From IMG/VR virus record IMGVR_UViG_2061766007_002377: a DNA stretch of 64,000 nucleotides, one strand, 5' to 3'. Below are positions 13,602 through 64,000 of the stretch, piece by piece; the stretch's first letter is position 1, and each line of letters begins with the position of its first letter. The notes beneath the pieces are model-generated. The model was not told the origin of the DNA and searched no databases. It worked only from the letters and a program-made list of their open reading frames with translations. This stretch comes from an uncultured virus (IMG/VR IMGVR_UViG_2061766007_002377) (taxonomy: Duplodnaviria; Heunggongvirae; Uroviricota; Caudoviricetes). Position numbers and translations under genes: made by a program.

Positions 13602-13602
13602 A

Positions 13603-15933: not shown

Positions 15934-15985
15934 ACTAAACCCCCTTTTTTTCATTGGATTACTGTTTCTTTTTTGTTTCTACTAG

Positions 15986-16018
15986 GGTTAAGTGTACATG
16001 GAAAATGTTGTCTTGTAA
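15986..16018 (-). promoter_or_regulatory. Sigma70-like integrase promoter
   Basis: TTTACA-N17-TACACT, conserved in copy B near 39340-39368. Confidence 0.55.
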
Positions 16019-16028
16019 AGAAATAAAA

Positions 16029-16220: not shown

Positions 16221-16335
16221 AAATCGATAAATTTTCGGCCTCAAAAATAAGGTAGAAAACGCCAATCGCACCAAAAAGGTGAGATTTGCCTGTCACACCA
16301 ACCTCTGTTTCTGTCATCCAATGGGAAAATGGCCT

Positions 16336-16745: not shown

Positions 16746-16776
16746 CGAGAAGAGATAAAATGGAATCCGAATGGAA

Positions 16777-19557: not shown

Positions 19558-19780
19558 CGCAGTTCCTTGTTATTCTCTGCACACTGTCAAGCAGAGCCGA
19601 TTCGACCTCATACTCATTGTCCGGTGTTGCAAGTTGCACAGAGTCTTCTCCGAGGCGGTTGAATATCGATGTGCGGAAATGGCATCCCTCGCTTCGCAGA
19701 TACTCAAAGACCCCTTCCTTGCCCGTCAGGGTGTTGAAGCGTCTAGTGTCCACAGGCTCGCCAAAACGTGTTTTGTACAC
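19538..19780 (-). CDS. Hypothetical protein leading the terminase operon
   Basis: Homologue at 42771-43034. Confidence 0.55.
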   Translation of the reverse strand: MYKTRFGEPVDTRRFNTLTGKEGVFEYLRSEGCHFRTSIFNRLGEDSVQLATPDNEYEVESALLDSVQRITRNCDGSFQE

Positions 19781-19903
19781 TATCGTAGGATTCTTTNNNN
19801 NNNNNNNNNNNNNNNNNNNNNNNNNNNNNNNNCCTATCCCTACATTTCCCTACGTTTCCCAAAAGACCCTTTTTTTGACCTTGCGTATGTTAGGGTGCGA
19901 ATT

Positions 19904-20167
19904 ATGAAAGACTACTCCGCCAAACTTGCTGCTTTGAGAGCAGAACTTGAGGAATACAAGAGCGCAAGAACCTCGATTCTTACAACGGGGCAGTCTTGGC
20001 GCATCCGCAATGGGGAAGATAGCAGGGAATACACCGCCGCCTCTCTTGGACAGATTAACGCACAGATTCAGGAAATCGAGCGTCAGATTGCCGTTCTTGA
20101 GGACATTGTAGAAGGCGGCTCTTATGGCTGTCCCAATGCCGTGCGTATCAGAGCGAGGGTCTTATGA
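19904..20167 (+). CDS. gpW-like head completion protein
   Basis: GQSWRI...REYTAASL; just upstream of the portal. Confidence 0.65.
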   Translation: MKDYSAKLAALRAELEEYKSARTSILTTGQSWRIRNGEDSREYTAASLGQINAQIQEIERQIAVLEDIVEGGSYGCPNAVRIRARVL

Positions 20168-22845: not shown

Positions 22846-23297
22846 TGGCAGAAGTTGTCAAACCCGCCCTTTCACTTGGTCTGGCTTCCACATGGAAGAC
22901 CGCAGTTGTGAAGATTGGTAAGGGTGCTGCAAATGCTCCCTCAAATGACACCATTCTTCCCGTAGGCTACCCTGTTCTGCTTTCAACAGTAAACGGACAG
23001 GAGTATGACGCACTCACAAAGACAGGCATTGCCGCCGCAATCGTTGACACCAAGGGTACAGTCGGTACATCCGTCACAACAGTCGGTGCCGCACTGGGCA
23101 TCCTGATGGAGCCTTGGAAGGTTTCCGCTACACAGACAAACGTAAAGATTGCCTATGCAGGCGAGTTCAACCTTGAGGGCATCTACGAAAGATGTGCAGA
23201 CTTCTTTGTTGCTACAGAAGTAACGCCGAAGATGCTCCGCAATGCTCATGGTCACATCACCATCGTTTCCAACGATGTCGAAGCAATCTACAGCTGA
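22845..23297 (+). CDS. Head decoration protein (gpD position)
   Basis: Between protease and capsid; ALGIL..AGEFN. Confidence 0.6.
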   Translation: MAEVVKPALSLGLASTWKTAVVKIGKGAANAPSNDTILPVGYPVLLSTVNGQEYDALTKTGIAAAIVDTKGTVGTSVTTVGAALGILMEPWKVSATQTNVKIAYAGEFNLEGIYERCADFFVATEVTPKMLRNAHGHITIVSNDVEAIYS

Positions 23298-23312
23298 TAA
23301 GGAGGAAGGCAT

Positions 23313-24368
23313 ATGAATTTCAGTCTTGATATTGTTTCAAAAGGCCTCCCCAGAGTGGCAATGAGGTCAACAACAGCAGCCCCTGTTGATACATTCCTTC
23401 AGGATATTCTCTTCGGCGCACCCTCAATCGCAGGCAATACAGCCGTTGACGGTGTAGTTCTTGAGTACCGCAAGTACGCACCCGGCATTGCCGAGGAAGC
23501 ACTGCGTGGCGAAGACCCCACAAGGATGAACTATCAGAGCAAGTTCAACGATTCCTACATCGTCCCCAACTACTACCATGTCACCGACAGGGTAACAATC
23601 GAGGATGCCGATGTAAGAGTTTTCGGTGAACCCCTTGAGGGCAACGAAGATTCAACAACACGCGTCATGAAGCGTTTTGCCGAGAAGAGAGATGCAATCC
23701 ACGATTCATTCCTCATGGCAAAGGAAGGCATGGCCGCCAATGCAATCTTCAATGCACAGATTGTAAACAAGGAAGGCACACAGGCTCTTCCCATGACAAG
23801 TTCCCTTCTTTCACAGACCGGATCGACAATGTATTCCGACTTCATCGGAACCATTAAGACAGGCTTTAACAACACAAGGAAGAAGAACAAGTCCTTCAGA
23901 CCCAACGCTCTGATTCTGAACCCCACATACGCAATTCTGCTTGTCGAGGCTCTGAACACAGCAGGTCTTCTGAACAAGATGGGTTATGACCTTGCAATCG
24001 CTCATTTTGCTCCTGTCTCCGACAAGGGCGTACAGGTAATGGGCAGTGTCAACACTCCCGCCGGACAGCTCGCAATCCTTGCCTACTACGGCAATGACGG
24101 CACTTCCGATTACATCCCCGACCAGAAGGCAATTCTCTGCAATGCAGACAAGGGTGGCATCGGTGCTTTCGCATACGGCAGAATCCAGGCTTGCGAAGAG
24201 AACGGCGCACCTCACTATGTTGTAGAACAGGAGAGATACCGCCCGTTCAAGGAAGGCAACGGAGACATGGCACACTTTGCAATCGAGGTTCAGAGCGCAC
24301 CGATTCCGGTCATCACAAACCTTGACGGTTACTGTGTATTCACCTCAATCCCCTCTTCATTGAGCTGA
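23313..24368 (+). CDS. Major capsid protein (lambda E-like)
   Basis: 351 aa, synteny, C-terminal QSAPIPV. Confidence 0.75.
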   Translation: MNFSLDIVSKGLPRVAMRSTTAAPVDTFLQDILFGAPSIAGNTAVDGVVLEYRKYAPGIAEEALRGEDPTRMNYQSKFNDSYIVPNYYHVTDRVTIEDADVRVFGEPLEGNEDSTTRVMKRFAEKRDAIHDSFLMAKEGMAANAIFNAQIVNKEGTQALPMTSSLLSQTGSTMYSDFIGTIKTGFNNTRKKNKSFRPNALILNPTYAILLVEALNTAGLLNKMGYDLAIAHFAPVSDKGVQVMGSVNTPAGQLAILAYYGNDGTSDYIPDQKAILCNADKGGIGAFAYGRIQACEENGAPHYVVEQERYRPFKEGNGDMAHFAIEVQSAPIPVITNLDGYCVFTSIPSSLS

Positions 24369-24381
24369 CAGAGGTGCATAG

Positions 24382-24714
24382 ATGATGTTCTACGATGAGA
24401 TATTCCAGAATGTTCTCGAAAACGGCCCCTTCTCACAGGAGGCAAAGCTTGTCATCGAAAACACGGAGTATCTCATCAAAGGCATTTTTTGTTCCGGCAA
24501 TTACGGCATGAACGAGTATGACAAGGGATACTCAACGAAGAAGACCGAAAAGAGACAGTCCTTCAAGATTTCCCTTGCCAGTATTCCGCAGGGCTTGAGT
24601 GAGTCGGACTTGATAAGACAGAGCCTTACCGTCAACGGCAAGGCATGGGTTATCAACGGCATAACGGGCAACGAGAGCGGAGTCCTTGAACTCTCTTTGA
24701 AGGCGGCATCCTGA
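24382..24714 (+). CDS. Head-tail joining protein
   Basis: Synteny; homologue at 47621. Confidence 0.55.
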   Translation: MMFYDEIFQNVLENGPFSQEAKLVIENTEYLIKGIFCSGNYGMNEYDKGYSTKKTEKRQSFKISLASIPQGLSESDLIRQSLTVNGKAWVINGITGNESGVLELSLKAAS

Positions 24715-25298
24715 TGGCAAGAATCCTTTCCGACATAGATACAAAGACAATCAAGACCGAGGGTTTTGAGGAGTTGGCGGAGAAACTGACCATCAGGCTT
24801 CCCTCAACCGTGAGAAGAATGGGCTTCTCCCTTGACGCGAAACTTGCCGTCATCGGAAGAAAACAGGAGCAGATTGAGGCCAACACCCTTGAGATGGGAA
24901 GACCGCAGAGAAAAGGCCGGGGCAGATACTCGGTCTATTCAATGTGGCATCCCCGCAGAGGTTGGGTCTCCACAACAAGAGAGGCCGCCGCAAGCAAAGG
25001 CGGTGGGCCGTTCATGCTTTCCAACATTTCATTCCGTGGGGCAAGAAAGTACAAGGACGCTGTTGTCGGTCACTACACAAGCCAACTTGCAAACCTTTGG
25101 AGTCACCAGACAAAACCATATACTGCCGAGTCTCCCGTAGTCGGACAGAAAGGCAGAGAGAAAACATGGGGAGTCGGAGACAGAAGACCTGCAAGGTACA
25201 GTTGGTCAGCCGTGGCTTCCGTCCTCGCAAGGATGGAAGGACAGGCAGTCAAGCGCACTGAAGCCGAATTTGCGGATCAGTTGAAGAAGGAGTTCTGA
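24714..25298 (+). CDS. Putative neck/tail completion protein
   Basis: Synteny, basic; divergent homologue at 47947. Confidence 0.45.
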   Translation: MARILSDIDTKTIKTEGFEELAEKLTIRLPSTVRRMGFSLDAKLAVIGRKQEQIEANTLEMGRPQRKGRGRYSVYSMWHPRRGWVSTTREAAASKGGGPFMLSNISFRGARKYKDAVVGHYTSQLANLWSHQTKPYTAESPVVGQKGREKTWGVGDRRPARYSWSAVASVLARMEGQAVKRTEAEFADQLKKEF

Positions 25299-25299
25299 C

Positions 25300-25743
25300 A
25301 TGACATTGAGACAGACCCTTGAACAGGTACAGCAGGACATCGTGAACAACCTTGATAACTACATCAGGTCAACCGAGGGTTCTGTGGAAGACTGGTATCA
25401 TCCTCTGGAGTATCACGATGATGCTCCGAGTTGGGAGACTGACAGATTCCGCATGGGTATCTATCTTTCCTCTCCTGACGGACAGGTATATACCTCTACC
25501 GCCTCTGCTTCAAATGTCATGGTGACTCTCGACTGCGTTCTTGATGATGTGCGTGAGCATAGCAATTATCCGCAGTTGTACCTGTCCGCAATCGTGGACT
25601 ACTTGAGAAAAAAGACCTACGGCGTGTCCTCAAATGTTGCAACCGCCCAAATTGTCAGAACGGATCTGGATGCTCCGGTTAATGCGTTAGCCGTGGCAAT
25701 CAGCATAACAGTCTATGCCAATGACATGGACTACGATTTTTGA
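25300..25743 (+). CDS. Putative tail terminator
   Basis: Acidic 147 aa directly before the major tail gene. Confidence 0.5.
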   Translation: MTLRQTLEQVQQDIVNNLDNYIRSTEGSVEDWYHPLEYHDDAPSWETDRFRMGIYLSSPDGQVYTSTASASNVMVTLDCVLDDVREHSNYPQLYLSAIVDYLRKKTYGVSSNVATAQIVRTDLDAPVNALAVAISITVYANDMDYDF

Positions 25744-25758
25744 TTTAAGGAGTAAGCT

Positions 25759-26472
25759 ATGGCACAGCTTAACAATGTTAGAGACGGAAGAAAAGCAAAG
25801 GTATTCCTTGCTTCTTTCGGCACAACAGAACTGACCACCGTTGCCCTTGGAAAGATATATGTAATCTCTGCAAAGGCAAGTGGCACAACTGCTTTCGGCA
25901 ACCTGAAGGTCGGTGACTTCTTCATCGCAACAGGCTCTACTGCACCTTCTCTTGAAACAGGAGACAAGTGCTTTGAAGTCACTCCCCTGTTCCTCGGCGG
26001 AGCAACGGACAAAGACATCTCCTTTGAGAAGTCAACTACAGATGTGACCTGCGACAAGGATGCCGCTTCCAATGTCACATCAGACGGCACTGTAGCCTCT
26101 TCAGGAAGCGTGACTGCCTATGACCTCATTCAGACAGGCACAACCGCAGCGAACACAATCCGCCAGAAGTTCAACAAGATGGTTGAGTACGCATCAGGTA
26201 CTCCCACCGCAACAGAACTCGACAGAACAGAGAAAGATGTTCTCATCTTCATCTGGGACGCAAGAGACCTTGAGACAGGCGAGTATGTCGGCGTTGACTT
26301 CGTACCTGCCTTCCTGTCTTCACAGGCTCACGGTTCTTCCTATGGCTCCGGTCAGACATTCACAGTCAACTTCACAGGAGCAGACAGTGATGAAGCCGGC
26401 CACAAGAGAAGTTATCAGCAGTTTGCATATCAGAGTGAGTTTGGCGCACAGCTCGACACTTGGTGTGCATGA
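25759..26472 (+). CDS. Major tail tube protein
   Basis: TTDVTCDKD motif; precedes chaperone and tape measure. Confidence 0.65.
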   Translation: MAQLNNVRDGRKAKVFLASFGTTELTTVALGKIYVISAKASGTTAFGNLKVGDFFIATGSTAPSLETGDKCFEVTPLFLGGATDKDISFEKSTTDVTCDKDAASNVTSDGTVASSGSVTAYDLIQTGTTAANTIRQKFNKMVEYASGTPTATELDRTEKDVLIFIWDARDLETGEYVGVDFVPAFLSSQAHGSSYGSGQTFTVNFTGADSDEAGHKRSYQQFAYQSEFGAQLDTWCA

Positions 26473-26576
26473 TAGAGCATTGACCCTTGCAACGGGTTGG
26501 GGTGCGATGACTTCAATCCCCTGTTCGTTGCAAGGTTTACTTTAATCAAAAATCGTTGCAAGGAGTTAAATACACA

Positions 26577-27334
26577 ATGCTTGATATTAAGATTGAGAAC
26601 ATTGATGAATCAAAGGCAGACCTCGGAGTAAGACACGAATACATTCCGCAGGTACTTTTCAATCTCGCAATAGAGAATGAGGAAGACAGGGTTGTAGTGG
26701 ATTGCGACCACTTCCTCCCCGGTGAGATGTCCAAGTACATGACCACCAACGAAGACAGGGAAATGGCCTATGACCTGCGTAAGGTCTTTGCCAAGAAGGT
26801 CAAAGGCATCCGCAATCTGCGGATCAACGGCAAACCTGTCACAACCGCAGAAGCCCTTCTCAAATATCCGTCAACTCTTGAACTTGATTCTCTGGTGATG
26901 GATGTTGCCCTTCACATAGTCAAGGGAGAAAGGCTCACGGGAGATGAAAGAAAAAACTTGTCATCGGCTTCCAACTCCTCCGAGGGAAACACCTCTACGA
27001 AGAGCTGAAGCCGAGGGATTATAGACCGTCTGCCCTACCGGAAGAGTTAATCCGATGTTGGGAGGATGTGACAGTCGATGAGAACGGCAAGCGGAAAGTA
27101 GAGAAGATTTCCCTCATGCAATGGAGGGATGTCCCGCAGTACCGCACAGAGTTCCTTGACCGCTGCATCAGGCTTTACAACCATTGGCACTTGTTCGACA
27201 AGGCACCGCCGAATGGTAACGGATGGGCAAATGAACGGAGCGTGATAGTCGAGATTCTTGAACTTCTTGAAATAGAGAACAACGAATACGATGCATGGCT
27301 CCGTGATAAAGAGGATGCGAAGCGTCCCAAATAA
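26577..27334 (+). CDS. Tail assembly chaperones G/GT via -1 frameshift
   Basis: A AAA AAC at 26951-26957 links ORF ending 27008 to the open -1 frame ending 27334. Confidence 0.75.
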
Positions 27335-27346
27335 AGGAGAGAGAGC

Positions 27347-28314
27347 ATGGCCGATTTGAAGTTGAAAATCGTTACTGACATATCACAGTCACAGAAAAAA
27401 CTGAACCAAGAAGTCGGCTCTGTAAACTCTCTTACAAATGCCCTTATCTCCACGGGAAAAGAGGGAGACAGGCTCATCAACGCCCTTGAGAGAGACCTTT
27501 ATCTTGCCGCAAGCAAGGCAGGCAACGGATTAAAGAGCCTTCAGGAACAGGCAAAGATTGTCGATAAGACCTTTGCCAAACTGAAGGTCGGCGTTAAAGA
27601 GACAGACGCTACATACAAGTCCGTGGCACAGGCATCGGAGTATCTTCATCGGCAGATAAGCATACTCACACAGGCCGAGAAAGACGCAACAGACGCAAAG
27701 AAGGCACACAACGAGGCCTCGGAAAAGGCTCTGGCCTTGCAGAAGTCCCTTGCCAACATTCAGAGCCGTACACAGGGGTCTGTCGATTTCCTGTCCGTCA
27801 CAGGCGGAAGTGAACTCGATGTGGCACAGGCTCAACTGCGTGGCTATGAGCAGACCCTGCATGAACTCATCGAGACCAAGGGTCTTGAGAACGATGAGAC
27901 CAAGAAGGCCATAGTCAACTACAACGAACAAAAAGACACCGTAGAGCGTCTGAAGCAGGCACAGGCAAGTCTTACCACCTCCATAAAGGCGACAGTCAAG
28001 GAGAACGAGAAACTGCCGTCCTCCTTCAACAAACTTCTCTCGGTTGCCAAGAACATCCTCAAGTTCCAACTTCTCATGGGGCCGATTACATCTCTTGTCC
28101 GTGGCTTCAGAAACACGCTCTCCGATTCAATCAAACTCGCAGGAGAAGCCGAGCAGAGATTCTCAAAACTTGCAACGGTCTTTGACGGATTCGGAGACTC
28201 TGCAAAGCGTATGGCTCAGAGTCTTGCATCTTCAATCGGTGTTGCAAATTCCACCGCCGCATCTGCCCTGTCCACTGTCGGAGACCTTCTGCAAGCTCAG
28301 GGCATGGGAACAGG
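27347..28314 (+). CDS. Tape measure protein, N-terminal part (ends at gap)
   Basis: MADLKLKI start, coiled coil, block shared with 50572-53574. Confidence 0.8.
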
Positions 28315-38119: not shown

Positions 38120-39280
38120 TTATGCCAGTGAGAACTGAACCTCTCTGACAACCTTCAAGTCATTCACATCCAAGTGTGCATAATGTTCCGTCATTTTATC
38201 ACTCTCATGGCCTATGATTGCCTGTATCTTACTGTTAGGCAGATCTGCAGCAAGGAGCCTTGTGTTCAGGAAGTGTCTGAAGCTGTGGAAGGTCAACGGA
38301 GCCTTTTTGTTGTCATAGTCAAAGAACGGTTCGTCCTTTTCTGCGTTGATTTCATCCATCCTCTCCACAAGCCTTCTGTTGAAGTATTTGTCACGCACCG
38401 GAGATTTGCCGTCAAGGGAGAAGAACAGACAGTCTGCAAACGGCGGAGCAATCTCCATAAGAAGGTTGTATATATCTTTGTTGATAGGAACCACACGCTC
38501 CCAACCGCTTTTGGTGGTCTTGCGGCCTTCACAGTCCGCCCATGAAGCGTCCACGTTGATGTGGTCGGGAAATACCTGTCCCAGAGTCAAAGCGCGAACC
38601 TCGCCTATTCTCATGCCTGTACGGGATGCCAGATAACAGGCAGTGTACGCCCACTTGTCTTTCCACGGCTTTTCAAACAGGGCCTTTATCTGCTCCAAGG
38701 TGAAGGCTCCCTTTCTTGTACTTTTGCGGACAAGAGGTTTTATGGCCTTGGCAGGGTTGCTTTTTATCTCTTCCTCAAACACCGCCTGGTCGAGCATCTG
38801 GCGTAGGACAAAGAAGGTGTCATTGGCCGTCTTGTTGGAAATGCGTGCCTTCTTGGGAAGGTCTAAAAGCCACTGCTCAATCATGTTGGCCGTGAGCTTA
38901 GCAAGTTCCACATCTCCGAAATACGGACAGATGTGATCATCAAATTTCTGCTGATTCTGATTTGCTACTTTCACGGAGAAGTGACCGCCACGGGCAATCT
39001 TGCTCCTGATAATAGGACAGGTATCATATTTCCAGAAGTTCTTGCCGTACTGTCTGATGGTCTTTCTGGTGTCCTTCTTGTGCCTGTCCTTCATGCACGG
39101 AATCAGCGTGCCGTTGCGTTCACGCTCAAGGACTACCTCTTTTGCCTCTGCCTTTCTCATACATCCTGTGGAGAATGTGTGCCTTTTGAGGTCTTCATCA
39201 TAGACCCAGTAATACCACGGCAAGCCTTCTTCTTTTTTGAAAAGTTCCCACCTGAAGGCCTTTTTTGTCATGCCTCCCAT
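38120..39280 (-). CDS. int: Tyrosine integrase
   Basis: TGMRIGE, HSFRH, IIGH, HY. Confidence 0.95.
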   Translation of the reverse strand: MGGMTKKAFRWELFKKEEGLPWYYWVYDEDLKRHTFSTGCMRKAEAKEVVLERERNGTLIPCMKDRHKKDTRKTIRQYGKNFWKYDTCPIIRSKIARGGHFSVKVANQNQQKFDDHICPYFGDVELAKLTANMIEQWLLDLPKKARISNKTANDTFFVLRQMLDQAVFEEEIKSNPAKAIKPLVRKSTRKGAFTLEQIKALFEKPWKDKWAYTACYLASRTGMRIGEVRALTLGQVFPDHINVDASWADCEGRKTTKSGWERVVPINKDIYNLLMEIAPPFADCLFFSLDGKSPVRDKYFNRRLVERMDEINAEKDEPFFDYDNKKAPLTFHSFRHFLNTRLLAADLPNSKIQAIIGHESDKMTEHYAHLDVNDLKVVREVQFSLA

Positions 39281-39377: not shown

Positions 39378-39550
39378 ACTGGGGAAGAAGGAATCGAATC
39401 CTTGGAATTTACCCCACAAAACCTTACAAAACATAAAATTACCTTACAAAAAATGTTAGTCTAACTTTCAGTTTTATTATGTTTTGTAGACTAATGTTAG
39501 CATTTGAGCGAAAAAGTATTGTTTCTAGTATTGTTTCTAGTAGAAACAAA
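39378..39550. other. attP-like region (same 23-bp core and arm-type repeats as copy A)
   Basis: Core at 39378-39400; TATTGTTTCTAG x2 plus TAGAAACAA at ~39517-39550. Confidence 0.65.
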
Positions 39551-39706
39551 TTACATGAAAATTTCCGCCCTCTGAAAAAAAATAAAAAACAATTTTGGCC
39601 TAAAAAAAGGGAAAAACTGAGTCCCCTTTTTGTTCGTTTTCGTCAACCTGATAAAACCGAAAAAAACTGAAAAAACCCGAAAAAAACCGAAAAACCGAAA
39701 AACCCG

Positions 39707-39822: not shown

Positions 39823-39836
39823 TACTCGTTTTTATT

Positions 39837-39907
39837 CTGGGATGATAGGACTTGAACCTATAAGACCGGTACCAAAAACCGGTGTGTTACCGTTACACCA
39901 CATCCCA
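39837..39907 (-). tRNA. tRNA-Gln(TTG), CCA not encoded
   Basis: TGGGATG/CATCCCA-G acceptor, GTGT/ACAC D-arm, CCGGT-TTTTGGT-ACCGG anticodon arm, GGTTCAAGTCC T-arm. Confidence 0.9.
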
Positions 39908-39929
39908 AAGGCAATTACAGAATTGTAAT

Positions 39930-53586: not shown

Positions 53587-55037
53587 ATGGCATATACATA
53601 TTCACTTGTTGTAAACGGAACAGACTACAATCTTGCAGAGTTTGTAGATTCTTCAACACTGTCTATTGTAAAGCCTTTCTGCTCCAAATCCAAAAAGAGC
53701 GGCAAAGGAACCATGAGCGTGACAATCAAAGGTGCGGCAAACAAAACTGCCTATCGCTCTTTCATGCAAGACCTTCTGATTCATGCCACTCAGACAAAGC
53801 AGGTCAATGACTGTCCTTTGCGTGTCAGTTGTGACGGGACTGTTGTGTTTTCCGGCTACCTTGATAAATCCTGCATAGACATCAAGAGCAAGAAGATTCC
53901 CGAATGGCTTGTTTTGGCAGGAATTGACAAAAGCCATCTTCTTGACCGCAAAATCCGCATAAACCGCTACTGGGAAAATCAGAGCAGAAACACTATTATC
54001 AGCGACCTCTTTTCCGCCCTTTCAACAGAGTGCGGCTTGTCGCTTTCCGTTGCCTCAAGCGAGATTCCGAATACAGAAGTGGTAGGCAACTTCTGCGTAA
54101 CCGAAAGCAAGGAACAAACCTACAGAGACGTAATTGATACCATTATTTTTGAGGCAATCGGTTACGTTCTTTTCTTTGACCCCGCCTCAGATGCGTTCAG
54201 AATCAAGAGCATACCTACAAGCGTATCAGGTCTTTCCCCCAGGGAAGTAACATTCCTTATCGAGAACGGCCTTGTGTCACGCAGTGTTATCTATGACAAT
54301 GACGGCATACTTCTTTCCTATCCTACAATCGTGGAAAGGGCAAATACCAACGTGTATGCCGAGAACATAAACCTTTCTTTTGACGAGAACAACCGTGTTA
54401 TCGGAGATACCGTCATTCCCGGAGAATACTTCCCTCACGATGCAGATGTGAAGGAAATCTATCAGACCTTCCGCCTTGCAGACAGACCGTATGTGTCCGG
54501 TGAAAGCCGTGTTGAGAATCAGGACCTTTCCCTGTTGTATGCAAAGAATGTCACAGTCAGCATACAGGCAAACCCGGCTCTGACTCTTGCCCCTGCCCTT
54601 CCCAATGTTCACTGGGACGGGACCGTTGAAATCTATCCTGATAAGGCAAGGGCAATCTATGTCAACAATGCCGTGGGAGAGAACAGCAACGTCACTGTTT
54701 TTGGTTACACCGCAACGGCAGTCTACATTGACTACTACAACAAAATCACCTACCCCAAGGCCTGTGCCAATCCGCAGGAATACAAGGTGCAAACAATCAC
54801 CGACCCAAACAAGGCCAAGGCTTTTGCAAACTGGCTGTACAACTCAAACAACTACGGCGCATCCACAAGCCAGTGGAGCGAGTACAACAGCAGTGCATAT
54901 CTGGGAGAAGTGGTAAACGTAATTCACAAGGACACAGGCGTACAAATGCCTCATGTCATTGTGCAGATAACGGATGAGAGCATAGACGGCTCAAGAGTCC
55001 GCAAGAGCAACATTGTTGCCATATCCATTTACTCATG
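53587..55037 (+). CDS. Putative baseplate hub/distal tail protein (3' end lost in gap)
   Basis: Position after tape measure; GAGG RBS. Confidence 0.5.
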
Positions 55038-55123
55038 NNNNNNNNNNNNNNNNNNNNNNNNNNNNNNNNNNNNNNNNNNNNNNNNNNNNNNNNNNNNNNN
55101 NNNNNNNNNNNNNNNNNNNNNNN

Positions 55124-58100
55124 CACATCCAAGGATGAGCTTATAGGCGGCACATGGCTTGATGAACTGCCTTCCACATACACAGGCTATGTCTGGTACA
55201 GAACAAAATACATCTACTCCAACGGAACCGTCACTTACTCGCAGTACGCTCACTATCTGACCACGGCAGAGATAGACGCTCCGTGGGTGCTGACTACGTT
55301 CTACGCCGTCTCTTCATCTAATGACTGGGAACAGGCAGACACAACACAGCCCCCGGTGCAGGGCGTGACATACTATGAGAGACTTCTTGACGGCTCTCTG
55401 AAAGAGGCAGATGTGTCCGATGGTTGGGTCACGGGCATCTCATATTATTTCATCCCGGACTGCACAGCATGGGGCAATTCTATTCCTTCTTCATGGAGAC
55501 ATGGGTTGTACGTCTGGACAAGGGACAATATCAACTACACGCTCAACGGCACAACGCAGCGCATGACTCCCGTGTTTTCGGCCTCTGCCACATCAGATGC
55601 AGAGAAAACCTGCAAGTTTGTAGTCACTCCGTCTTCCTACACATGGGCCAAGAACAAGAGAGCCGTGGATTCTGATTCCGTCATTGTCACATTCGGCTAT
55701 GAGATTCAGGGTTACGGAGAGAGCGTGGAGCCTTTGATTACCGTTCCTTCCGGGTACGATATAGAGACAGACAACAACTCCATTAAGTTCAACAGTGCAA
55801 TAACCTTGGACAGAATGGAAATATTTGTCAGCCTTGCACAGTTCCCGGACGTGACCCCTGTGAAAATAGTTCTGGAGAGCGTTGACGTCACGGACGAGCC
55901 TACATACCTTGGAATACTGAGTGCAATGCCGAGTGCGGACAATACCCGGTTTTCACGTTTCCTTGCAGGAGACCACTTTGTTGCCAACGGCATCACAGGT
56001 AAGACAGACCTCATGCCCTATGTATATGACGGTGTTTCTTGGGTTGCACCGAGCAGAAACGGCGTGTACGGCCCTATGGCCTACATCCAGATTCTGTACA
56101 ACTGTGTCCATGACATATTCTCCAACGCACAGGACGTATATACGCTCTGCGGTACAGGGGCAACGGCACAGGAAGGGGTTTCATACTATCAGCAGATAGA
56201 CGGAGTGTGGACTGGCGTTGTCGTGCGTACAGGAGAAGATGTATCTACCCTGTACACCAAGGGAACCAACGTGCCTTCTCAGGTGTTGGAATACTACAAC
56301 TATCAGGCGGAGATTATCTCTGACTATGTAGCATCCAATGACATTCAGCTTGTCGAGCAGACTGACCCGGTAACAGGCAAGACCAAGGTAGGCAAGATAA
56401 GAAGCGCAGGCTATGAGAAGGGAACGGTCAAGAAGCTCATTGAAACAGCACAGGGCGGTCAGTCTCTTGCCTCTTACAAGCAGGGATTCTACGGAGACAC
56501 TGACGGAAACTTTGAGGCCTTTGACGCATGGCTGTACAGAGCCAACATCTACAATGCGAACATTGTAGGAGAACTGCGCAATGACCTCTTTTTCACAAAC
56601 CTTGAAGCCAAGGTCGGAGCGACATACACGCAAAGTACACTGACCAATGAATCATGGTCGGGAACCAAAGCTCTTGAGTCTGTCCGCACTGCTATCGGAA
56701 GCGGTAACGTGGAAAAGGTACTGAGCATGGGTGCGCACTATCCCACTCAGGGCAATCAGTACAGCCTTGGAATGTTGGTGGACAATCCGGCAAGGGCAGT
56801 AGAAGCGTCTGTCAATGCAGGGGCAACCTTCACATCTCCCATATTTACGGCCTTTACTGCAAGCCTTCCTTTGTTCAACTCCGGCAACGTGCCTGTAAGC
56901 GGTGGAGATATCTACTACGGCAGTGTGCTGACCAACCGCAAGAGGTGGGCTATCTCATCCCTGTATGAGAATACCGATATTACCGAGAACGTAATCAATG
57001 CAAGTGGTATCTCTTGGAACGGCACCAACCTTGGTTTTGCAAGGGTGACTAATCCTGAGGCAACGGCTGTTAACGGATATTCTACGAGCCACAGTTCTGG
57101 TAACGACAGTCGTTATGACGATTCATGGAGTTTTACTATTCCTAATGGATTCAGAAATGCAACTATGAATTTCTCAGGAAATAGAAAGCAGGGCCGTCAA
57201 ACTTCATGGTTCCAGACTTTATATCGTCAGGGTTCAATGAGAATTTCTATAAATGGGGCAAGTTCATATTATATTGGTGCAACGGAAAACGGTAGTGTTC
57301 CGTTTAGTAGCTCTCTCACAGTAAACGCAGGAGATACTATTACTGTTGCATGGGGCAATGCCGCAGGTAGAACGTCTACAACAGACGAGGTATGGGGAAG
57401 TATCTCTATCTCTATTGCTGCTCAGACCTTTGCCGCTCAGGGAATGGATACAACGGGTTTCTACACCTTCACAACAACCACACAGAACGGATATACCCGT
57501 GTTGACACAGCCATCAACCGCAACAACCATCCTATCTACTATCAGGAGAACAACACTGACACTTACTACGAAAAGGCAACGGTAACGCTTTCCTCTCCCT
57601 CATGGAGCAGTGAGAATCATCTTCTGAGCGCAACGGTGAATTATACCTATGAGAAGTACCAGACAGGCTTGAACCTTCTTAACTCCACCGGAGAGAGACA
57701 GCAGACCGTCACCACAGGAGCGCACCCTGTCTCTGAATACTTTGACGTTACCTATGCCGGGACAGTGCGCTACAAGTCCGACACGGCACAGCACTATTGG
57801 CACATTAACAGTGCCGGAATACTGACAAGAAGTGCAACACAAGAAGAACCCGCAAAACAGATTGACAGTGCAAAGATATTTGCCATTGACTCCTGTACGG
57901 CGTACTACAAACTCTTTGGGGACAACTCAAGGCGCAACATCACAGGCGTTACCGGAGTTATCTGGACAAATACTTCAATCATCTTTGAAACAAGTAACGG
58001 CAACGTGATTGTCACAACCTCTGACTGGGTGGAAGAGTTCTATGTGAATCTTGTCTCGCAGTCCCAGAGAAGAGGAAACTTTGCGGACACGATTCTGCCG

Positions 58101-58973
58101 ATAATGGGAGAAGAAGACAGGAAAAAGCAAGACCCGGTTAAGGAAATAAATCTCGGCTCTGAGGAAAATCGTTTTGATGAAGGGTATCTAAAAAGGTTAG
58201 GCTCAGGTAATGTTCCCACGGAGATTGTTTATACCGAGAATCTCGGACAACTTGTCTCAGTTCCAGGCTCTTCTATTGCATCCTTTGAGCCAAGCCTTGT
58301 TTACTATGAGTATGACTCTGCCAAGGATGAATATATTGCCACAACGGACAGCACTCCCAACAGCAGCAAGACCTACTACAATGTTTATTCAGTGACTGAT
58401 GCCTATGTTAAGAATCAGTGGACAGTGACCCCGGAAAAGATTTCCAAGAACGCAGGTGGTGGAAGAATCCCCGGCACTGTGTTCTGGTATGCAGGGTCAG
58501 CAAACGACATTCCTGAAGGAACGCTTTTGTGCAACGGCGCAACTGTGCTCATTGCGGACTATCAAAACCTCTTTGACGCAATAGGTACAACTTTCGGGGG
58601 AAATGGCACTACCAACTTCAAACTTCCTGACTTCTTCCATGCAACTGACCCGGACAACAGTACGGTCAGTACAGGCTTGTTCATCAGGGCCACAGACGGC
58701 AGTTCCTTGGGTGCTGTGGGTAGTAAACAGTATGATGCGATAAGAAACATTACTGGAGACTTCTCCCACCGTACAGACAATGAGAGCATTCCTTTTGCAG
58801 GTGCTAATGGTGCATTTGCCCTTGACAACTATATATCGCACACCAATACCACAGGTATAGAATCAGGATATAACCGTTATTTCAAAGTCACTTTCAACGC
58901 TTCAAGAATAGTCAGAACCTCTGTAGATAATCGGCCATACAATATGTCCTTATTACCCCTAATATGCTATTAA
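55124..58973 (+). CDS. Tail fibre/receptor-binding protein with tail-collar domain and switchable C-terminus
   Basis: IPGTVFWYAG..IPEGTLLCNGA..YQNLFDAIGTTFG..FKLPD collar motif; DAIRNITG...NRPYN.SLLP.I.Y tip. Confidence 0.85.
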
Positions 58974-61372
58974 GGGGAGCATTGAAATATTATACGGGTG
59001 AATATCAAGACTATCTGCATGAGTTGACATAGGGTTGTCTGTAAAATTGCCATTATTGGCATTAGAAAATATTGTTTCCATGTTTATATATCCGTAATTA
59101 CCCGAACCAAACAAATAATTATAGGCATTCGTAATACTATGTTTCCACGAACCTATGCTTGTTGCACTTTGGCGATAAACAAACAAACCAGTTGCACTTC
59201 CAGTAATGTTTCTTAATATGCGATTAAAGGTAACAGCCCAATATTATATGGCCTATTTTCTAAGGCCGTGCGTACAATGCGAGACGCATCCATAACTATC
59301 CAGTTTAAGTGATTGGAAGAAGATGAAAAACGGTCATTTGTAGAATAAAAAGCCGTGTCTTGATGTATGGCGTACAAGGCTCCATCCCAGTTGCCGTTGT
59401 GCATGATTATACCACCACCAGAGACATCATCCCATGACGTGCGTATTTGTCCAGTAATGTTTCTTATGACTCTTCAATTTCTGAGAGATAATCGAATGGA
59501 CTTTCTTCTTCACAGTTGTCCTCAACGGTTTCTGTTCGGAGGTGGTCCAGAGCCTCTTCTCCATACTCTGCCACAATTTGTGCTTTCAATTCATTGGCCT
59601 GTGCTTCCCACAGATTAAGGTTTGGTCTTTCCTGTGCAAGCCTCTGGAGTTCTGATTTGTAGAAGGCTTCCTTTTCTGGATCAGAAGCATATCCGTTCTC
59701 AAACTCATAAAGTCTCCGGGCGTAATAGTCTGTGTCCTCAAGTTCTTTCTTGAGAGTTTCGTACTGCTCCTCAAGCTCTACAACCTGATTGCAGATTTCC
59801 GGCTTGTCCATCTTCTCCCATTCTCTGTCGGCAGGCTTGTCTCCGAGGGTGGTCATATATTCCTCTTCAGCCCACCAGAACTTCTCAGGGTTGTAGAAAG
59901 GCTTACCGCCTGAGTAGGTTCCTGTTTCGTCAAGGTGCTTGCGGTAGTCCGGTTTGATTACCCACTTTTCTCCGTCCCAACAAACAGCCTCAAACTCACC
60001 CTTTTCAGGTGGTTCCATCCATGTGCAGTTTGCAGGGAGAAGAAACTCTCCTTCATGTTTGGGGTTTTCCTGTGCGTATGCGGTTCCTGTGTATTCTCCG
60101 TTCTGTGCGTATCTGTAACAAGTTTTAATGGTCATGTTTGGTACCTCTAAATTGATTATACAATTACTATTAAGATAACTCTATATGCAAGGATAAGAAA
60201 CATTACTGGAACAATCAGGACATACCATGATACTTCATCAAATTATGCTTTTCCGACTGGAGCCTTGTATGCTGCATCAGGACAAACCAAAGGAAACAGT
60301 AATGCTTGGAATACATCATGGGATATTGGACTCGATGCTTCAAGAGTTGTGCCAACAGGGACAGACAACCATCCCTATAATATGAAGTTATTACCCCTAA
60401 TTGTCTATTAAAGTAAGAAACATTAGCGGTTCATTCTATGGTGGTGCTAGGCGAAACGGCAATTCTAGTGACTATTTAGGGGCATTCACAGGAGCAACAA
60501 ATTCTGGCGTTAAACTGACAACAGGTAGCAATGCCGATTTGGCAAAGTTTCTCTTTAACGCTTCTGGCTCTGTGCGTACAGCCTCAGACAACCGTCCCTA
60601 TAACATCTCATTGCTCCCCGTAATAAGTTACTAAGAAACATTACTGGAGAGTGTGAATTTTCTTTTGTTTGGCCTTCATTTGTTGGAGAACCTAATAGCG
60701 CAATTTATCTAATAGAAAGAGCTGTAGATAAGACAGCAGCTTCTGGCTCTGCCCTTGGGACTCGAAATGTGAGCATTGTTTTTAATGCCTCTCGTACAAC
60801 AAGCACATCACCCGAAAACCGTCCATATAACATTTCTATGCTTCCTCTTATTCACTATTAAGAAACATTACTGGTGTAATGAATAAGACCAAGGGTGACA
60901 ATATGTACCTTAACGCCCAAACTTACGAAATATCAACTAATGGCGTTTTATATATCTCGTCTTCACAATACGATACATGGGCATCAGGTACTGGCGGTGG
61001 AACAGTTGTGAAAGGAATTGGTATCAATGCAAACGCAGGAAGTACATCAAATAACCCAATGTCAGGCCACGCAGTTGGCCCAGATGTCCGTCCTTATAAC
61101 ATCTCAATGCTCCCGTTAATATGCTATTAAGGGCAACATCTTGATATTATACGGGTGGATGTCGCTTCCCGAAGCATGACGATACATTGGGTTGCCATAA
61201 GACGAGGTATCAGCATTAGCATTAAGGTAAAGATATCTTCCAGCATGGTTTCCTGCGTTACTTGCAGCTGCCCCGTATGATGCTGATGTATAGAAAGCCC
61301 CATTAAATCCGGTAGAAGAACCTGCTGCCTCCATAATAATCCATTTCTCTACACTTCCAGTAATGTTTCTTA
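58741..61372. mobile_element. Multiple-inversion cassette locus (tail-fibre shufflon) with 8 tip variants
   Basis: TAAGAAACATTACTGGA-type sites at +58741, -59199, -59450, +60194, +60414, +60632, +60859, -61356, each opening an RNI(T/S)G...PYN..LLP.I.Y* frame. Confidence 0.9.
59464..60135 (-). CDS. Tail fibre assembly chaperone-like protein inside the cassette locus
   Basis: GEY.G, LLPANCT..EPP, WDGEKW...DYR, L..TDY motifs; AGAGG RBS. Confidence 0.7.
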   Translation of the reverse strand: MTIKTCYRYAQNGEYTGTAYAQENPKHEGEFLLPANCTWMEPPEKGEFEAVCWDGEKWVIKPDYRKHLDETGTYSGGKPFYNPEKFWWAEEEYMTTLGDKPADREWEKMDKPEICNQVVELEEQYETLKKELEDTDYYARRLYEFENGYASDPEKEAFYKSELQRLAQERPNLNLWEAQANELKAQIVAEYGEEALDHLRTETVEDNCEEESPFDYLSEIEES

Positions 61373-61431
61373 TCACCCATATCTGTTTAACAAGCGAATC
61401 CTTATTAAACAAACTGCTGTCTTTTGTTTAA

Positions 61432-62208
61432 TCACCAATCCACCAACCTACTCATCCTCTTTGACACACTCTGCACAGTGACCCTGAGATACCTCAAAGT
61501 GGTCTGGATATTTCTGTGGCCTAAGAGGTCTTTCACCAAATAGATGTCCCGTGTCTTGGCATAAACCTTCCGTGCAAAGTACCGCCTCAGCTCATGCGGA
61601 GAAACCTTTGCCTTAATCCTTAACTTCTTCTGCAAGGTCTTGAGCTTGACCATGATGTAATTGTCCGGCCACAGCATGATTTTCTCTGTGTTCTGACGGC
61701 CTTTCAATAGGGGAAGTACATCCTGTCTCATCATAAGCGGAAACCATACAGTCCTTGATTTGGTGCCTTTTCCGACAATCTCTTTTCTGGTGCAGTTCCG
61801 CAGGTCTCCGACAGTCACCTGATATGACTCCGTGATACGCAGTCCTGTGCCGGAGAGAAGTCTGATTGCAACAAGCCAATCTGTTTGCTCGGTGTTTGCT
61901 AGAAAGGTCAGTATCTTGCCGTATTCCTTATCCGTCAGCACGTTCTCTGCAAAGATAGGCTCCTGAATACGCACCAAGGGAATCTCAACATCAAGACCTT
62001 TGTATTTGGCGTACTTTCTGATTGCGTTCAGCCGGAGATTGACAGTCATGGGCTTATGGACCTGAAGGCACATCTGACGGTACAGATAGACATTCTCCGT
62101 TGTGACTTCCGGGAAGAAAGAGAAGTAATGAATCATTGATGAGGTGTAGGCTTGCACGGTGGACTCTGACAGTGCTTTGCTCTGAAGGTAGGTGGGGAAA
62201 TCTGTCAT
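61432..62208 (-). CDS. Tyrosine recombinase (putative shufflon invertase)
   Basis: TGLRITE, GKGTKSR, HELRRYFA, LGHRNIQTTLRY; no arm-binding N-domain; adjacent to the last site. Confidence 0.9.
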   Translation of the reverse strand: MTDFPTYLQSKALSESTVQAYTSSMIHYFSFFPEVTTENVYLYRQMCLQVHKPMTVNLRLNAIRKYAKYKGLDVEIPLVRIQEPIFAENVLTDKEYGKILTFLANTEQTDWLVAIRLLSGTGLRITESYQVTVGDLRNCTRKEIVGKGTKSRTVWFPLMMRQDVLPLLKGRQNTEKIMLWPDNYIMVKLKTLQKKLRIKAKVSPHELRRYFARKVYAKTRDIYLVKDLLGHRNIQTTLRYLRVTVQSVSKRMSRLVDW

Positions 62209-62254
62209 GGGGAGACTCCTGGAATAAAAAGATTGAAAGGCAGAAAAAAGCAAT

Positions 62255-62376
62255 TAGGTTACTGCGCTGCCCTACTTTATAATTAAACCAAAAGCACGGC
62301 TTTTTTCTGCATGACAGGGCCATGTCGTTGCGGATTTTCCAGACCCCTTACGAAGTACAAGAAGGGGTCTTTTTTA
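62255..62376 (+). ncRNA. Promoter-sRNA-terminator unit divergent from the recombinase
   Basis: TAGGTT-N17-TATAAT at 62255-62283; AGACCCCTT/AAGGGGTCT hairpin followed by a T run. Confidence 0.5.
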
Positions 62377-62391: not shown

Positions 62392-62455
62392 TGGGAAATA
62401 TGCGGAAATATAGGGATATATACGGGTAAGTTATTCAGGTCTCCGGCTTTATATT
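62392..62455 (+). promoter_or_regulatory. Lysis-module promoter with four 10-bp repeats
   Basis: TGGGAAATAT/GCGGAAATAT/AGGGATATAT/ACGGGTAAGT then TAAGTT-N17-TATATT. Confidence 0.5.
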
Positions 62456-62477
62456 GAGAGCGTGGAGGTCTTTTGCA

Positions 62478-62939
62478 ATGGATGAAAGAGCAGAAGAAAT
62501 AATCAATAAAGCCGAAGATATGAGAGTTGAGGAAATGCGTATGCCTGAAGACCCTATTGAAAGAAGAATATTCCGTCTTGAGATTTACGAGCGGAACAAT
62601 ACCAAAGATATATCCGAACTCAAAGACCGTACAAAGAACGCACACCACCGCATTGATGAAACACAGCGCGACCTTCAGGACTTCAGAACTGAGACCAGAG
62701 AGAACTTTAAGAATATCAATACAAAGCTCGACAACATAGGCGTGAACATGGCAAAGAACGCAGAAGCGAACGACAAGAAATGGAAGAAGGTTTTTGTCGT
62801 AATGATTGTTGTTGCAATCCTAGCACTGGCAGCCTTTGCAGGAACCTTTGCAGAGAGCAGTGAAACGAGAAAGACAGTCGGAGAGATAGCCGGAAAGGTA
62901 GCCACGGTAACGGCAACGGTTGCTCCGGCAGTGTTATAA
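62478..62939 (+). CDS. Coiled-coil membrane protein (XhlA/holin-region type)
   Basis: AHHRIDE motif, C-terminal TM segment, GGAGG RBS. Confidence 0.55.
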   Translation: MDERAEEIINKAEDMRVEEMRMPEDPIERRIFRLEIYERNNTKDISELKDRTKNAHHRIDETQRDLQDFRTETRENFKNINTKLDNIGVNMAKNAEANDKKWKKVFVVMIVVAILALAAFAGTFAESSETRKTVGEIAGKVATVTATVAPAVL

Positions 62940-62968
62940 GCAATCCATTACCTATAGGAGTAAATACA

Positions 62969-63442
62969 ATGGAAAAGAAAACAATTCTTGATGTACTGGT
63001 AGCGTTTTTCGACAAATACGGCGTTACCCTTGCAATCGGACTTGTGGCCTGCATCTGCGTAGGTCTTCTGGTTGAAATCTTCAAAAAGAGTGCTTTCACG
63101 GCCCTTGAAAAGAAGGTTGAAGCAGACGAGAAGAAGAAAGCAAATGTGGCTGCAATCAAGGCAGTGTCTTCACTTGTCCTTGCCGGAATCCTGACAGCAT
63201 TTTTCCTCGGATGTATTTGGAAGAGCGACCTTCCCAAGCTCGGAAACGGCGCAGTCCTTCCCATTCATTTCACAGTCATGTATCTCTTGCAGATGGTCTT
63301 TGACTTGAAGAGTCTCAAGGGCATTGTTGACAGAATCCTTAACAGCTTTGAGAAATCTCCCAAAGAGAAGAAACCCAAGATGAAGAAGGTTGTCACATGG
63401 GTTGAGGACACTGATTCGGATAAGGGAGATATTGTTCAGTGA
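62969..63442 (+). CDS. Putative holin
   Basis: 2-3 TM segments, highly basic C-terminus. Confidence 0.5.
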   Translation: MEKKTILDVLVAFFDKYGVTLAIGLVACICVGLLVEIFKKSAFTALEKKVEADEKKKANVAAIKAVSSLVLAGILTAFFLGCIWKSDLPKLGNGAVLPIHFTVMYLLQMVFDLKSLKGIVDRILNSFEKSPKEKKPKMKKVVTWVEDTDSDKGDIVQ

Positions 63443-63783
63443 CAGGTTTTATCAACACAGGAACATTATCACTCGCAGGGGCGGTTATTGCCGTCCTTGC
63501 CCTTATTCTTTTTGGCAGAAATCTGGGAAAGAAAGCAGGTGCCAACGCCCTTGCAAAAGAAAAGGCAAAGACCCGTGAGGCCCAAACTCAGAAACAAGTC
63601 TTACAGGCTGTCTCTCAGGCATCAAGTGAAACTGCAAAGGCACAGGGCATAAGTGAAGGCGAATATAGAACAGCACAGAGCCAGATAGACTATGCAAGGC
63701 GCACAGGCGACATTGAGTTTGCCCTGCGTATAGCGTCAAACATGGCACAGAAGGCTCTGGATAAGGGAGCGACAGAGAAATGA
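63439..63783 (+). CDS. Putative inner-membrane spanin-like protein
   Basis: N-terminal TM plus Ala/Gln/Lys helical tail; followed by a lipoprotein. Confidence 0.4.
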   Translation: MTGFINTGTLSLAGAVIAVLALILFGRNLGKKAGANALAKEKAKTREAQTQKQVLQAVSQASSETAKAQGISEGEYRTAQSQIDYARRTGDIEFALRIASNMAQKALDKGATEK

Positions 63784-64000
63784 GAAAGAATATCATCTTG
63801 CTTATCCTCGTCATTGTGGCCGTGTTCTCGTTTGTCTCATGCTCAACAACAGACCACTACATCCCTCAGACTGTGGACATAAGCAGTCAGACGGCAACAC
63901 TGTTTGCTCAAAGGCCGGACAACAGCAACTTTGCGGTTCACAGTGAAGTCAAGGATTTCTTTGACATGGTGGACAACGCTTCATCCTATCTTGCAGCATG
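63780..64000 (+). CDS. Lipoprotein (o-spanin-like), runs off the window
   Basis: MRKNIILLILVIVAVFSFVSC signal/lipobox read from the sequence. Confidence 0.5.
   Translation, partial: MRKNIILLILVIVAVFSFVSCSTTDHYIPQTVDISSQTATLFAQRPDNSNFAVHSEVKDFFDMVDNASSYLAA

Follow-up and report, generated by a model that had tools for sequence, protein, structure and literature searches.

One important question raised by the tail fibre locus of an uncultured virus (IMG/VR record IMGVR_UViG_2061766007_002377) is whether the row of start-less reading frames that follows the fibre gene is a switch for the tip of the fibre. The locus lies in a 64,000-nt stretch of Caudoviricetes DNA (hereafter the window, to whose whole length all coordinates refer). 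An initial annotation, made from the letters of the window, had described it as an eight-variant shufflon driven by a tyrosine recombinase. We conclude that it is very probably a multiple-inversion shufflon of a temperate phage, by which the C-terminal receptor-binding module of the fibre is exchanged among eight stored versions. The array is real, and it probably works as an eight-tip shufflon of the kind named Rin. The evidence that carries this conclusion is the anatomy of the array, the intact catalytic residues of its recombinase, the conservation of the layout in distant loci and the junctions found exactly at the crossover sites in relatives of the phage.

Crossover sites in the window

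A scan of the 64-kb window with the 15-nt core AAGAAACATTACTGG, allowing up to 3 mismatches, returned 12 matches, 8 of them within positions 58742-61371. The chance expectation was 1.81 matches (sd 1.29, maximum 5), and a count of 12 was reached in none of 100 shuffles. Seven cores are exact (58742+, 59200-, 59451-, 60195+, 60633+, 60860+ and 61357-) and the eighth, at 60415+, has 2 mismatches, whereas the other four matches lie elsewhere in the window with 3 mismatches each. Hence the scan agreed with the initial annotation in the position of all eight sites and in their orientation, five forward and three reverse. The length of 17 bp given there also held: seven of the eight sites are identical over 16 nt and six over 17 nt, while three have 19-20 nt in common. 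An exact scan of IMG/VR with the site was uninformative, since it returned at least 119 stretches with one match each, that is, chance hits.

Written as TAAGAA-ACATTACTGG(A), the site is 16-17 bp long and lies within the codons of the peptide DAIRNITG. The conserved part amounts to 16-17 nt in all eight sites, and the approximately 10 nt located 5' of TAAGAA vary among all of them. Set beside the 9-6-9 dyad of a related locus (L198, see below), the site of the window may be read as a 6-bp crossover spacer, TAAGAA, followed by one conserved recombinase-binding arm, ACATTACTGG, the other arm not being conserved. The two ends of the array also form an imperfect inverted repeat of 34 nt (79%), in which the end of the constant fibre part (58724-58757) is matched by site R7 and the fixed flank beyond it (61356-61389).

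Eight tip cassettes between the fibre gene and the recombinase gene

The fibre open reading frame (ORF) spans 55035..58973 and codes for 1312 amino acids (aa); its true start is uncertain, because positions 55038-55123 are masked (N). According to the ORF list, the last residues of the constant part (55035..58740, plus strand) are ...GSKQYDAI, directly ahead of the first site, F0 (58741-58757), where the tip T0 begins (58741..58973, plus strand). T0 is the expressed tip, as it is fused in frame to the fibre at present. Seven start-less silent cassettes follow, four forward and three reverse. The first two are on the minus strand: T1 (58959..59215, with site R1 at 59199-59215) has a tail-to-tail overlap of 15 nt with T0, and T2 (59213..59466, with site R2 at 59450-59466) uses the TAA of R1 as its stop codon. 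A gene resembling the tail fibre assembly gene tfa (59464..60135, minus strand, 223 aa) is located between the inverted sites R2 and F3 and stops at the TAA of R2; the 58 nt upstream of it (60136..60193, minus strand) belong to the same invertible segment. The forward cassettes come next, all on the plus strand. T3 (60194..60411) consists of site F3 (60194-60210) and an open frame, and T4 (60414..60634) opens with F4 (60414-60430), a deviant site of the sequence ...CATTAGCGGT, whose peptide is RNISG. T5 (60632..60861, site F5 at 60632-60648) and T6 (60859..61130, site F6 at 60859-60875) adjoin their neighbours in such a way that the TAA of F5 is the stop of T4 and that of F6 the stop of T5. 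The last cassette, T7 (61116..61372, minus strand, site R7 at 61356-61372), overlaps T6 tail to tail. A fixed flank of 59 nt (61373..61431) extends from R7 to the stop codon of the tyrosine recombinase gene (61432..62208, minus strand, 258 aa, PF00589). In all, the TAA of a site ends four of the five ORFs that end at one (T2, tfa, T4 and T5), and the stop codon of T3 lies 2 nt short of the site.

All eight cassettes are stop-free from the site to the stop codon and code for 71-89 aa. They start with RNITG (RNISG in T4) and end with (R/H)PYN(I/M)x(L/M)LP(L/V)IxY*. Therefore, the cassette coordinates, the shared start at the site and the shared C-terminal end of the initial annotation were all borne out by the open-frame check. 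Its description of the middles as unrelated was not upheld; the cassettes are homologous though divergent, with identities of 27-44% overall and 13-35% in the middles, and they fall into two subtypes. Subtype 1 (T0 and T2-T5) shows the pattern ...(N/D)AS(R/G)x(V/T)x(T/S)xxx(D/E)N(R/H)PYN, and subtype 2 (T1, T6 and T7) the pattern ...NPMxxHAxGxDxxPYN. The middles are AT-rich, as had been proposed, but only mildly so, with a GC content of 0.34-0.46 versus 0.49 for the constant fibre part. At the cassette ends, stretches of 51 nt are held in common with 69-80% identity.

The recombinase

The recombinase gene is preceded by AGGAG, 8 nt upstream of the ATG at 62208; the longest ORF, from the TTG at 62253, codes for 273 aa. 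The product matched PF00589 with an E-value of 8e-18 (65 bits versus a cutoff of 27), and residues R124, K147/K150, H205, R208, H231 and Y240 were invariant in an alignment of 21 sequences. This supports the earlier identification of the neighbouring gene as a tyrosine recombinase; it is the sole recombinase beside the array, and it is of the PF00589 type rather than a serine recombinase. Database searches yielded 22 homologues with 45-95% identity, the full-length ones being 258-260 aa long, and the closest are mostly found on contigs of 1-14 kb. The best relatives of solved structure were the archaeal XerA 4a8e (1.2e-24) and 5hxy, and among NCBIfam models Xer models alone were hit, all below their cutoffs (the best, XerA, with 103 bits versus 220). 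The protein has a Xer-like two-domain layout; it is thus an armless, Xer-like recombinase, which the phage carries as a second enzyme besides its integrase.

A tblastn search of 50,697 phage records with the recombinase matched 26 records, among whose named groups Bifidobacterium did not appear. In a plasmid collection the top 25 matches were PsrA-like or unnamed recombinases, none of them named Rci, and a scan of IMG/VR with the recombinase alone returned no relative.

The fibre and the motif that holds the site

The identity of the gene as a phage tail fibre, also proposed in the initial annotation, was confirmed. The Pfam family Collar (PF07484) was detected with an E-value of 7e-17 (61.6 bits versus a cutoff of 24) at residues 1117-1170 of the 1282 scanned, approximately 110 aa before the end, and the PHROG match was a tail collar protein. 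A profile built from the last 277 aa and 19 homologues, searched against the Protein Data Bank (PDB), matched the short tail fibre of phiTE (9cuy, 2.5e-32) and, over the last ~170 aa, T4 gp12 (1ocy, 8.7e-11; 1pdi, 3.6e-11; 5iv5, 3.4e-9). The final strand of the fibre, ...NRPYNISLLPLI, aligned with the C-terminus of gp12, ...ETRPWNISLNYII.

In gp12 the head domain, located between the collar and the last strand, reportedly binds the receptor. By homology to gp12, each cassette would correspond to a receptor-binding head module like that of gp12, together with the strand running back to the collar. The C-terminal domain of the fibre is probably an intertwined trimer. The last 277 aa were modelled as a monomer with AlphaFold2, at a mean pLDDT of 55.9 and with confidence in the Collar core alone; the tips were not placeable in the fold.

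The site lies in a motif that the fibre family has in common. Within DAIRNITG, the residues D, I, R, N and I do not vary among 20 fibre homologues, which are 28-39% identical to the query except for the closest one. Among 79 IMG/VR loci with related fibres, D[AT]IRNIxG was present once in 24, twice in 2 and in none of the remaining 53, and no recombinase of the window's family was found within about 6 kb of any of the 79. The 28 copies of the motif use 22 different 15-nt codings, each of which departs from the coding of the window at 2-6 positions. These varied codings and the lack of a family recombinase in the 79 loci identify DAIRNITG as a normal feature of the fibre family, in which the shufflon would have placed its site. 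The opposite possibility, that the motif is conserved because of shufflon sites, was rejected, as most relatives carry it once, in varied codons and without the recombinase. The identity among the sites of the window exceeds what the protein requires, which points to an additional constraint at the DNA level. Structure 9cuy also contains DAIRNITG, and according to its description (PMC11972413) residues 3-92 are the only ones modelled.

Two further observations concern the fibres of relatives. The fibre of P0023 is 71% identical to that of the window and carries a ninth tip. Sequences P0025, P0026, P0030, P0031 and P0034 are small collagen-repeat Collar fibres whose constant parts are near-identical up to DAIRNITG and whose tips after it are unrelated; they seem to have been produced by another shufflon of this type.

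The layout is conserved in distant loci

An alignment of the recombinase family was used for one scan each of genome contigs and metagenome contigs. Such an array was present in five of the eight best loci (36-58% identity where the recombinase abuts a site), and four of these five have the same site core. The most complete is L120, in a metagenome-assembled genome (MAG) of Candidatus Ornithospirochaeta, a spirochaete, whose recombinase is 38% identical. It contains eight sites with the core GAGACATTA in a five versus three orientation, a 628-aa Collar fibre ending in ...DAIRDITASF..., and eight tips. A homologue of the tfa-like gene sits between inverted sites, in the same place as in the window, with its stop codon inside a site. 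To the right of GAGACATTA, the bases vary between cassettes and travel with the cassette, and hence the exchange takes place at the core or to the left of it.

Locus L199 (58%) packs into 1.3 kb the recombinase, one site, two tips (one forward, one reverse) and another site. In L122 (36%) and L121 (37%) the site directly follows the recombinase or lies at the end of the contig, where both contigs stop; two MAG contigs end at a site or at most ~80 nt past one. The TAA stop codon of the recombinase gene forms the first three bases of a site in L120, L122 and L199.

Locus L198 (53%) is syntenic, with tape measure, tail, fibre, array, recombinase and small membrane proteins. It contains four copies of a perfect 24-bp dyad, TAATAGCGT-CAAGAA-ACGCTATTA, whose 6-bp spacer is nearly the TAAGAA of the window. 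Two arms around an asymmetric 6-bp spacer are the classical layout of a tyrosine recombinase core site. Between positions 3800 and 7400 of this locus, the dyad sites (9-6-9) are flanked on both sides by open frames that begin within the site and run outward (...ASRNAI... in one direction, ...AFLDAI... in the other), and the 514-aa fibre ORF beside the array has only a degenerate copy of the site (15/18). With the patterns used, no such site was detected in L197 (56%), L200 (33%) or L209 (partial).

Junctions between sites in metagenome contigs

Public sequencing runs were searched with positions 57500-62300, and contigs (not reads) from four of them were aligned at a likeness of at least 85%. 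Runs X1 and X2, probably from the source sample (bovine gut), contain 0.98-0.99 of the words of the query, and 18 runs from ten further studies contain 0.09-0.17. Runs X3 and X5 belong to two independent studies and contain pieces of relatives that are 88-99% identical. These four runs are the ones considered below; the shares of X4 and X6-X20 are 0.09-0.16.

Four joints in these relatives could be interpreted. In X5, a joint from 58738 to 61374 connects the constant part, through the site, with T7 (18 nt shared, shorter side of 132 nt). In X3, the joint from 60209 to 61356 leads from the upstream flank of the tfa-like gene through the site to T7 (18 nt shared, shorter side of 76 nt). Two more were found in X5: from 59198 to 60875, joining T1 through the site to an inverted T5 (shorter side of 244 nt), and from 60632 to 61430, joining the inverted T5 through the site to the 3' end of the recombinase gene. 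All four connect opposite strands, lie exactly at sites and run tail to head, with no illegal combination. The sites have been used for inversion within this phage lineage, and rearrangement at them is seen in relatives, with opposite-strand joints in two metagenomes.

Four other rows of the alignments (X3, 60875 to 61136; the skips from 58187 to 58305 and from 59949 to 60019; and X5, where the alignment goes back 1941) do not run from site to site. They probably represent diverged or novel cassettes that align at their conserved ends only, and they speak neither for nor against inversion.

At the same likeness threshold, X3 covers T2, T5 and T7 and lacks T0, T3, T4 and T6, and X5 covers T1, T5 and T7 and lacks T2, T3, T4 and T6. 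T5, in inverted orientation, is ~99% identical in both, and the constant fibre part and the recombinase are ~88-90% identical. The tip subsets and the likeness of T5 suggest turnover or exchange of cassettes.

Proposed mechanism and alternative explanations

In the mechanism that we propose, the armless recombinase of 258 aa would pair two inverted sites and invert the DNA between them. Each site would join a 'tail' end (the constant part, the end of a cassette or of the tfa-like gene, or the recombinase flank) to a 'head' end (the start of a cassette), and under this tail-to-head rule a new tip would be in frame with the fibre after any inversion. Whatever ORF ends at a site would take its stop codon from the TAA of that site. 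Tips T1, T2 and T7 would be one inversion away from expression and T3-T6 two; worked through from the site orientations, the earlier statement that reverse cassettes need one inversion and forward cassettes two proved correct. The recombinase of the window is expected to catalyse these inversions and to favour inversion over deletion, and the tips would differ in receptor and host specificity.

Several points weigh against a switch that is active in this phage. With deviations at 3 of its 17 positions, site F4 may be recombined poorly. Direct repeats make up five of the sites, and a Cre-like enzyme would delete between them, so that a bias towards inversion has to be assumed. In X1 and X2, one contig each spans the array (57926-61801 and 58077-61801) in the reference order and without any alternative joint. 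The joints described above come from relatives that are ~88-99% identical and not from the window phage, and therefore record past recombination rather than present activity. The single arrangement in X1 and X2 and the degenerate F4 would fit a frozen or decaying shufflon, built by past inversion and no longer switching (for instance because its recombinase is inactive or not expressed), whose seven silent tips are relics, and the truncated second phage copy in the window (see below) testifies that decay occurs. We consider this unlikely, however, since seven of the eight sites have kept their identity over 16 nt, the seven silent tips are stop-free, and the recombinase is full-length with all its catalytic residues. 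Moreover, assembled contigs drop rare variants and minority arrangements are invisible in them, so X1 and X2 neither show nor exclude switching in the source population.

The joints themselves might have a different origin. General homologous recombination or gene conversion at the repeats and at the cassette ends, with a recombinase employed in dimer resolution or integration, would fit the 51-nt stretches shared by the cassette ends (69-80% identity) and the mosaic tips (T5 at ~99% versus flanks at ~90%). This explanation is very improbable: all four interpretable joints lie on the 17-18-nt site and not on the longer C-terminal stretches, 17 nt make a very short repeat for exchange of the RecA type, five loci besides the window have a recombinase of this family directly next to a site, and the phage has a separate integrase. 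Assembly artefacts, that is, contigs made chimeric at the repeats, deserve consideration as the evidence consists of contigs aligned at 85% likeness, and joints below 95% in metagenomes can stem from other organisms or repeats. We regard such an origin as scarcely credible, because the shorter sides of the joints measure 76-244 nt, the two studies are concordant with the model, and the same architecture occurs independently in public MAGs and metagenome contigs. A collapse of the repeats is also an unlikely cause, as at 17-20 nt they are shorter than the 31-nt words of the assemblies.

Beyond the inversion shufflon, which we maintain as the explanation of the locus, it is conceivable, although doubtful, that the array serves as a capture-and-display system for receptor-binding modules, comparable to an integron for fibre tips. 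Acquired gp12-like tips would bring a near-site with them, in the right place and frame, through the DAIRNITG of non-switching fibres; the sites would be homogenised by the formation of hybrid sites, and tips would be traded among related phages. The tip subsets of X3 and X5, the likeness of T5 (~99% versus ~90% in the flanks) and the ninth tip of P0023 are hints in this direction.

The tfa-like gene inside the array

The tfa-like protein was recognised by its N-terminal ~65 aa only, which matched PHROG 1807 (6.6e-9), PHROG 105 (tail fiber assembly, 8.8e-8) and PHROG 7290 (1.4e-5); no Pfam or NCBIfam match was found for it. Its 12 homologues are 39-96% identical. On the minus strand, the upstream region contains TGTATAAT, an extended -10-like box, followed by AGAGGT 7 nt before the ATG, and may thus be a promoter. 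In a consensus scan for promoters and terminators between 58400 and 62600, the counts were not above those of shuffles and the -10-like box of the tfa-like gene was not listed. Since this upstream region belongs to the same invertible segment, the gene could be expressed in either orientation. It would ride in the array as a single gene with its own upstream region, its product acting presumably as a chaperone and probably serving all tips.

The phage and its neighbourhood

The array closes the structural module of a temperate phage. Upstream of it, Pfam and PHROG assigned a large terminase (gpA type), a portal (lambda family), a head protease (S49) and a major capsid protein (E type), and a tape-measure-like ORF of 1000 aa and a lambda-type integrase of 386 aa (38120..39280) also lie there. 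Two collinear phage copies, about 76-83% identical, occupy 8800-28300 and 30650-51200 of the window; both contain the replication module, the genes for integrase, terminase, portal and capsid, and the beginning of the tape measure. The first of the two breaks off within the tape-measure gene near 28254 and is followed by a short repeat that is also found at 7576-7664 and 8497-8605, and the second copy alone reaches the tail fibre and the shufflon. The duplicates are either tandem related prophages, one of them truncated, or the result of a chimeric metagenome assembly. The second copy has a tRNA-Gln gene (39836-39908) between its integrase and its terminase, and a 62-nt repeat (89%; 16181-16242 and 39511-39572) adjoins both integrase genes; these could be remnants of attachment sites.

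Downstream of the recombinase, four small ORFs occupy 62454-63998: one of 161 aa with a hydrophobic tail, a membrane-like one of 157 aa, one of 114 aa, and a fourth with the lipoprotein-like start MRKNIILLILVIVAVFSFVSC. No significant Pfam match was obtained for them. The same set of small ORFs stands beside the recombinase in locus L198, and it is probably a lysis module.

A nucleotide search (blastn) of 50,697 phage records with positions 58100-62300 gave no match. A host search with the large terminase gave no hit in the three genomes that carry L120, L121 and L122; among 301 sampled genomes of the phylum of the L120 genome, 15 matched, with a best identity of 29-31%.

Comparison with known systems

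The initial annotation had named the R64 Rci shufflon and the serine invertases as precedents but had missed the closest one. This is the Rin shufflon of Bifidobacterium breve and B. longum prophages (Mavrich et al. 2018, PMC6109161), with 5 cassettes, a rix site of 11 bp and an armless recombinase; its inversions were seen in virion and genome reads. Rin is reported from prophages of Eggerthella lenta too (PMC8778435). It resembles the locus of the window in having a gene for a constant receptor-binding protein (RBP) N-terminus, followed by promoter-less C-terminal cassettes in both orientations, each behind a short asymmetric repeat. It likewise has an armless, XerD-like tyrosine recombinase at the far end, distinct from the prophage integrase, one site inside the gene and one right after its 3' end, and inversions that map to the sites between relatives. 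The same arrangement was found here: F0 lies inside the fibre ORF, the array is start-less and two-way, the recombinase is armless, and the inversions of relatives fall at the repeats. The likeness is one of architecture, and the window belongs to a bovine-gut phage whereas Rin belongs to actinobacterial prophages. Rin has 5 tips, versus 8 in the window, an 11-bp rix versus a site of 16-17 bp, and heads of 95-100 aa on a TP901-1-like RBP versus tips of 71-89 aa on a T4-gp12-like Collar/head fibre. Unlike Rin, the window has its site in a family-wide protein motif and a tfa-like gene inside the array.

Within the open-access full text searched, which leaves subscription journals outside, Rin was the only tyrosine-recombinase shufflon of a tail fibre or RBP to be found, and neither a gp12/Collar-type tip shufflon nor a rumen example was encountered. 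A survey of programmed inversions lists tail fibre genes among the targets and names cases of the Mu type (PMC9881135). As the principle has been known since 2018, the value of the present locus is incremental. The new details are the site inside a family-wide protein motif, the site TAA as the stop codon of the upstream frame, the shared tfa-like gene, and the recombinase gene as the fixed end of the array. The locus adds a rumen/gut lineage to the few described tyrosine-recombinase phage shufflons, those in print coming from Actinobacteria. It also offers design rules: a crossover site can be placed in a conserved motif of gp12-type receptor-binding proteins, one chaperone-like gene can go with eight tips, and in relatives the recombinase gene itself is the fixed end of the array. 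Modules of this kind are natural blueprints for phages with a switchable host range, and they explain why metagenome assemblies break in tail fibre regions.

The shufflon of R64 and other IncI plasmids (Rci, sfx, pilV) is likewise a multiple inversion by a tyrosine recombinase, with sites in both orientations and the C-terminus of an adhesin as the part exchanged. Its target is a conjugative-pilus adhesin (pilV) on a plasmid, whereas that of the window is a phage Collar fibre accompanied by large terminase, portal, protease and capsid genes. The sfx sites are said to consist of a spacer and one conserved arm, an asymmetry that reportedly blocks deletion between direct repeats; the site of the window, with a spacer and one conserved arm in all eight copies, resembles sfx in this. 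A preference of Rci for inversion over deletion is documented in PMC11850598.

The closest named relatives of the recombinase are PsrA-type hsdS invertases, similar in size and also without an arm-binding domain. The identity to PsrA of a Streptococcus dysgalactiae plasmid is 29.9% with 100% of the query covered, and an integrase beside type I restriction-modification genes in the Bacteroides phage BS-TP3 is 28.7% identical. The identity to the PsrA type is only ~30%, and the target there is hsdS instead of a fibre gene. T4 gp12 is similar in the last ~170 aa, the C-terminal strand included, but is not invertible.

The Gin (Mu), Cin (P1) and Min (p15B) systems have in common with the window that the C-terminus of a phage fibre is exchanged for host range and that assembly genes lie inside the invertible DNA; Min also has several crossover sites. 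They depend on serine invertases, in contrast to the PF00589 tyrosine type of the window. Mu has its own assembly gene for each alternative tip, whereas the window has a single tfa-like gene among eight tips.

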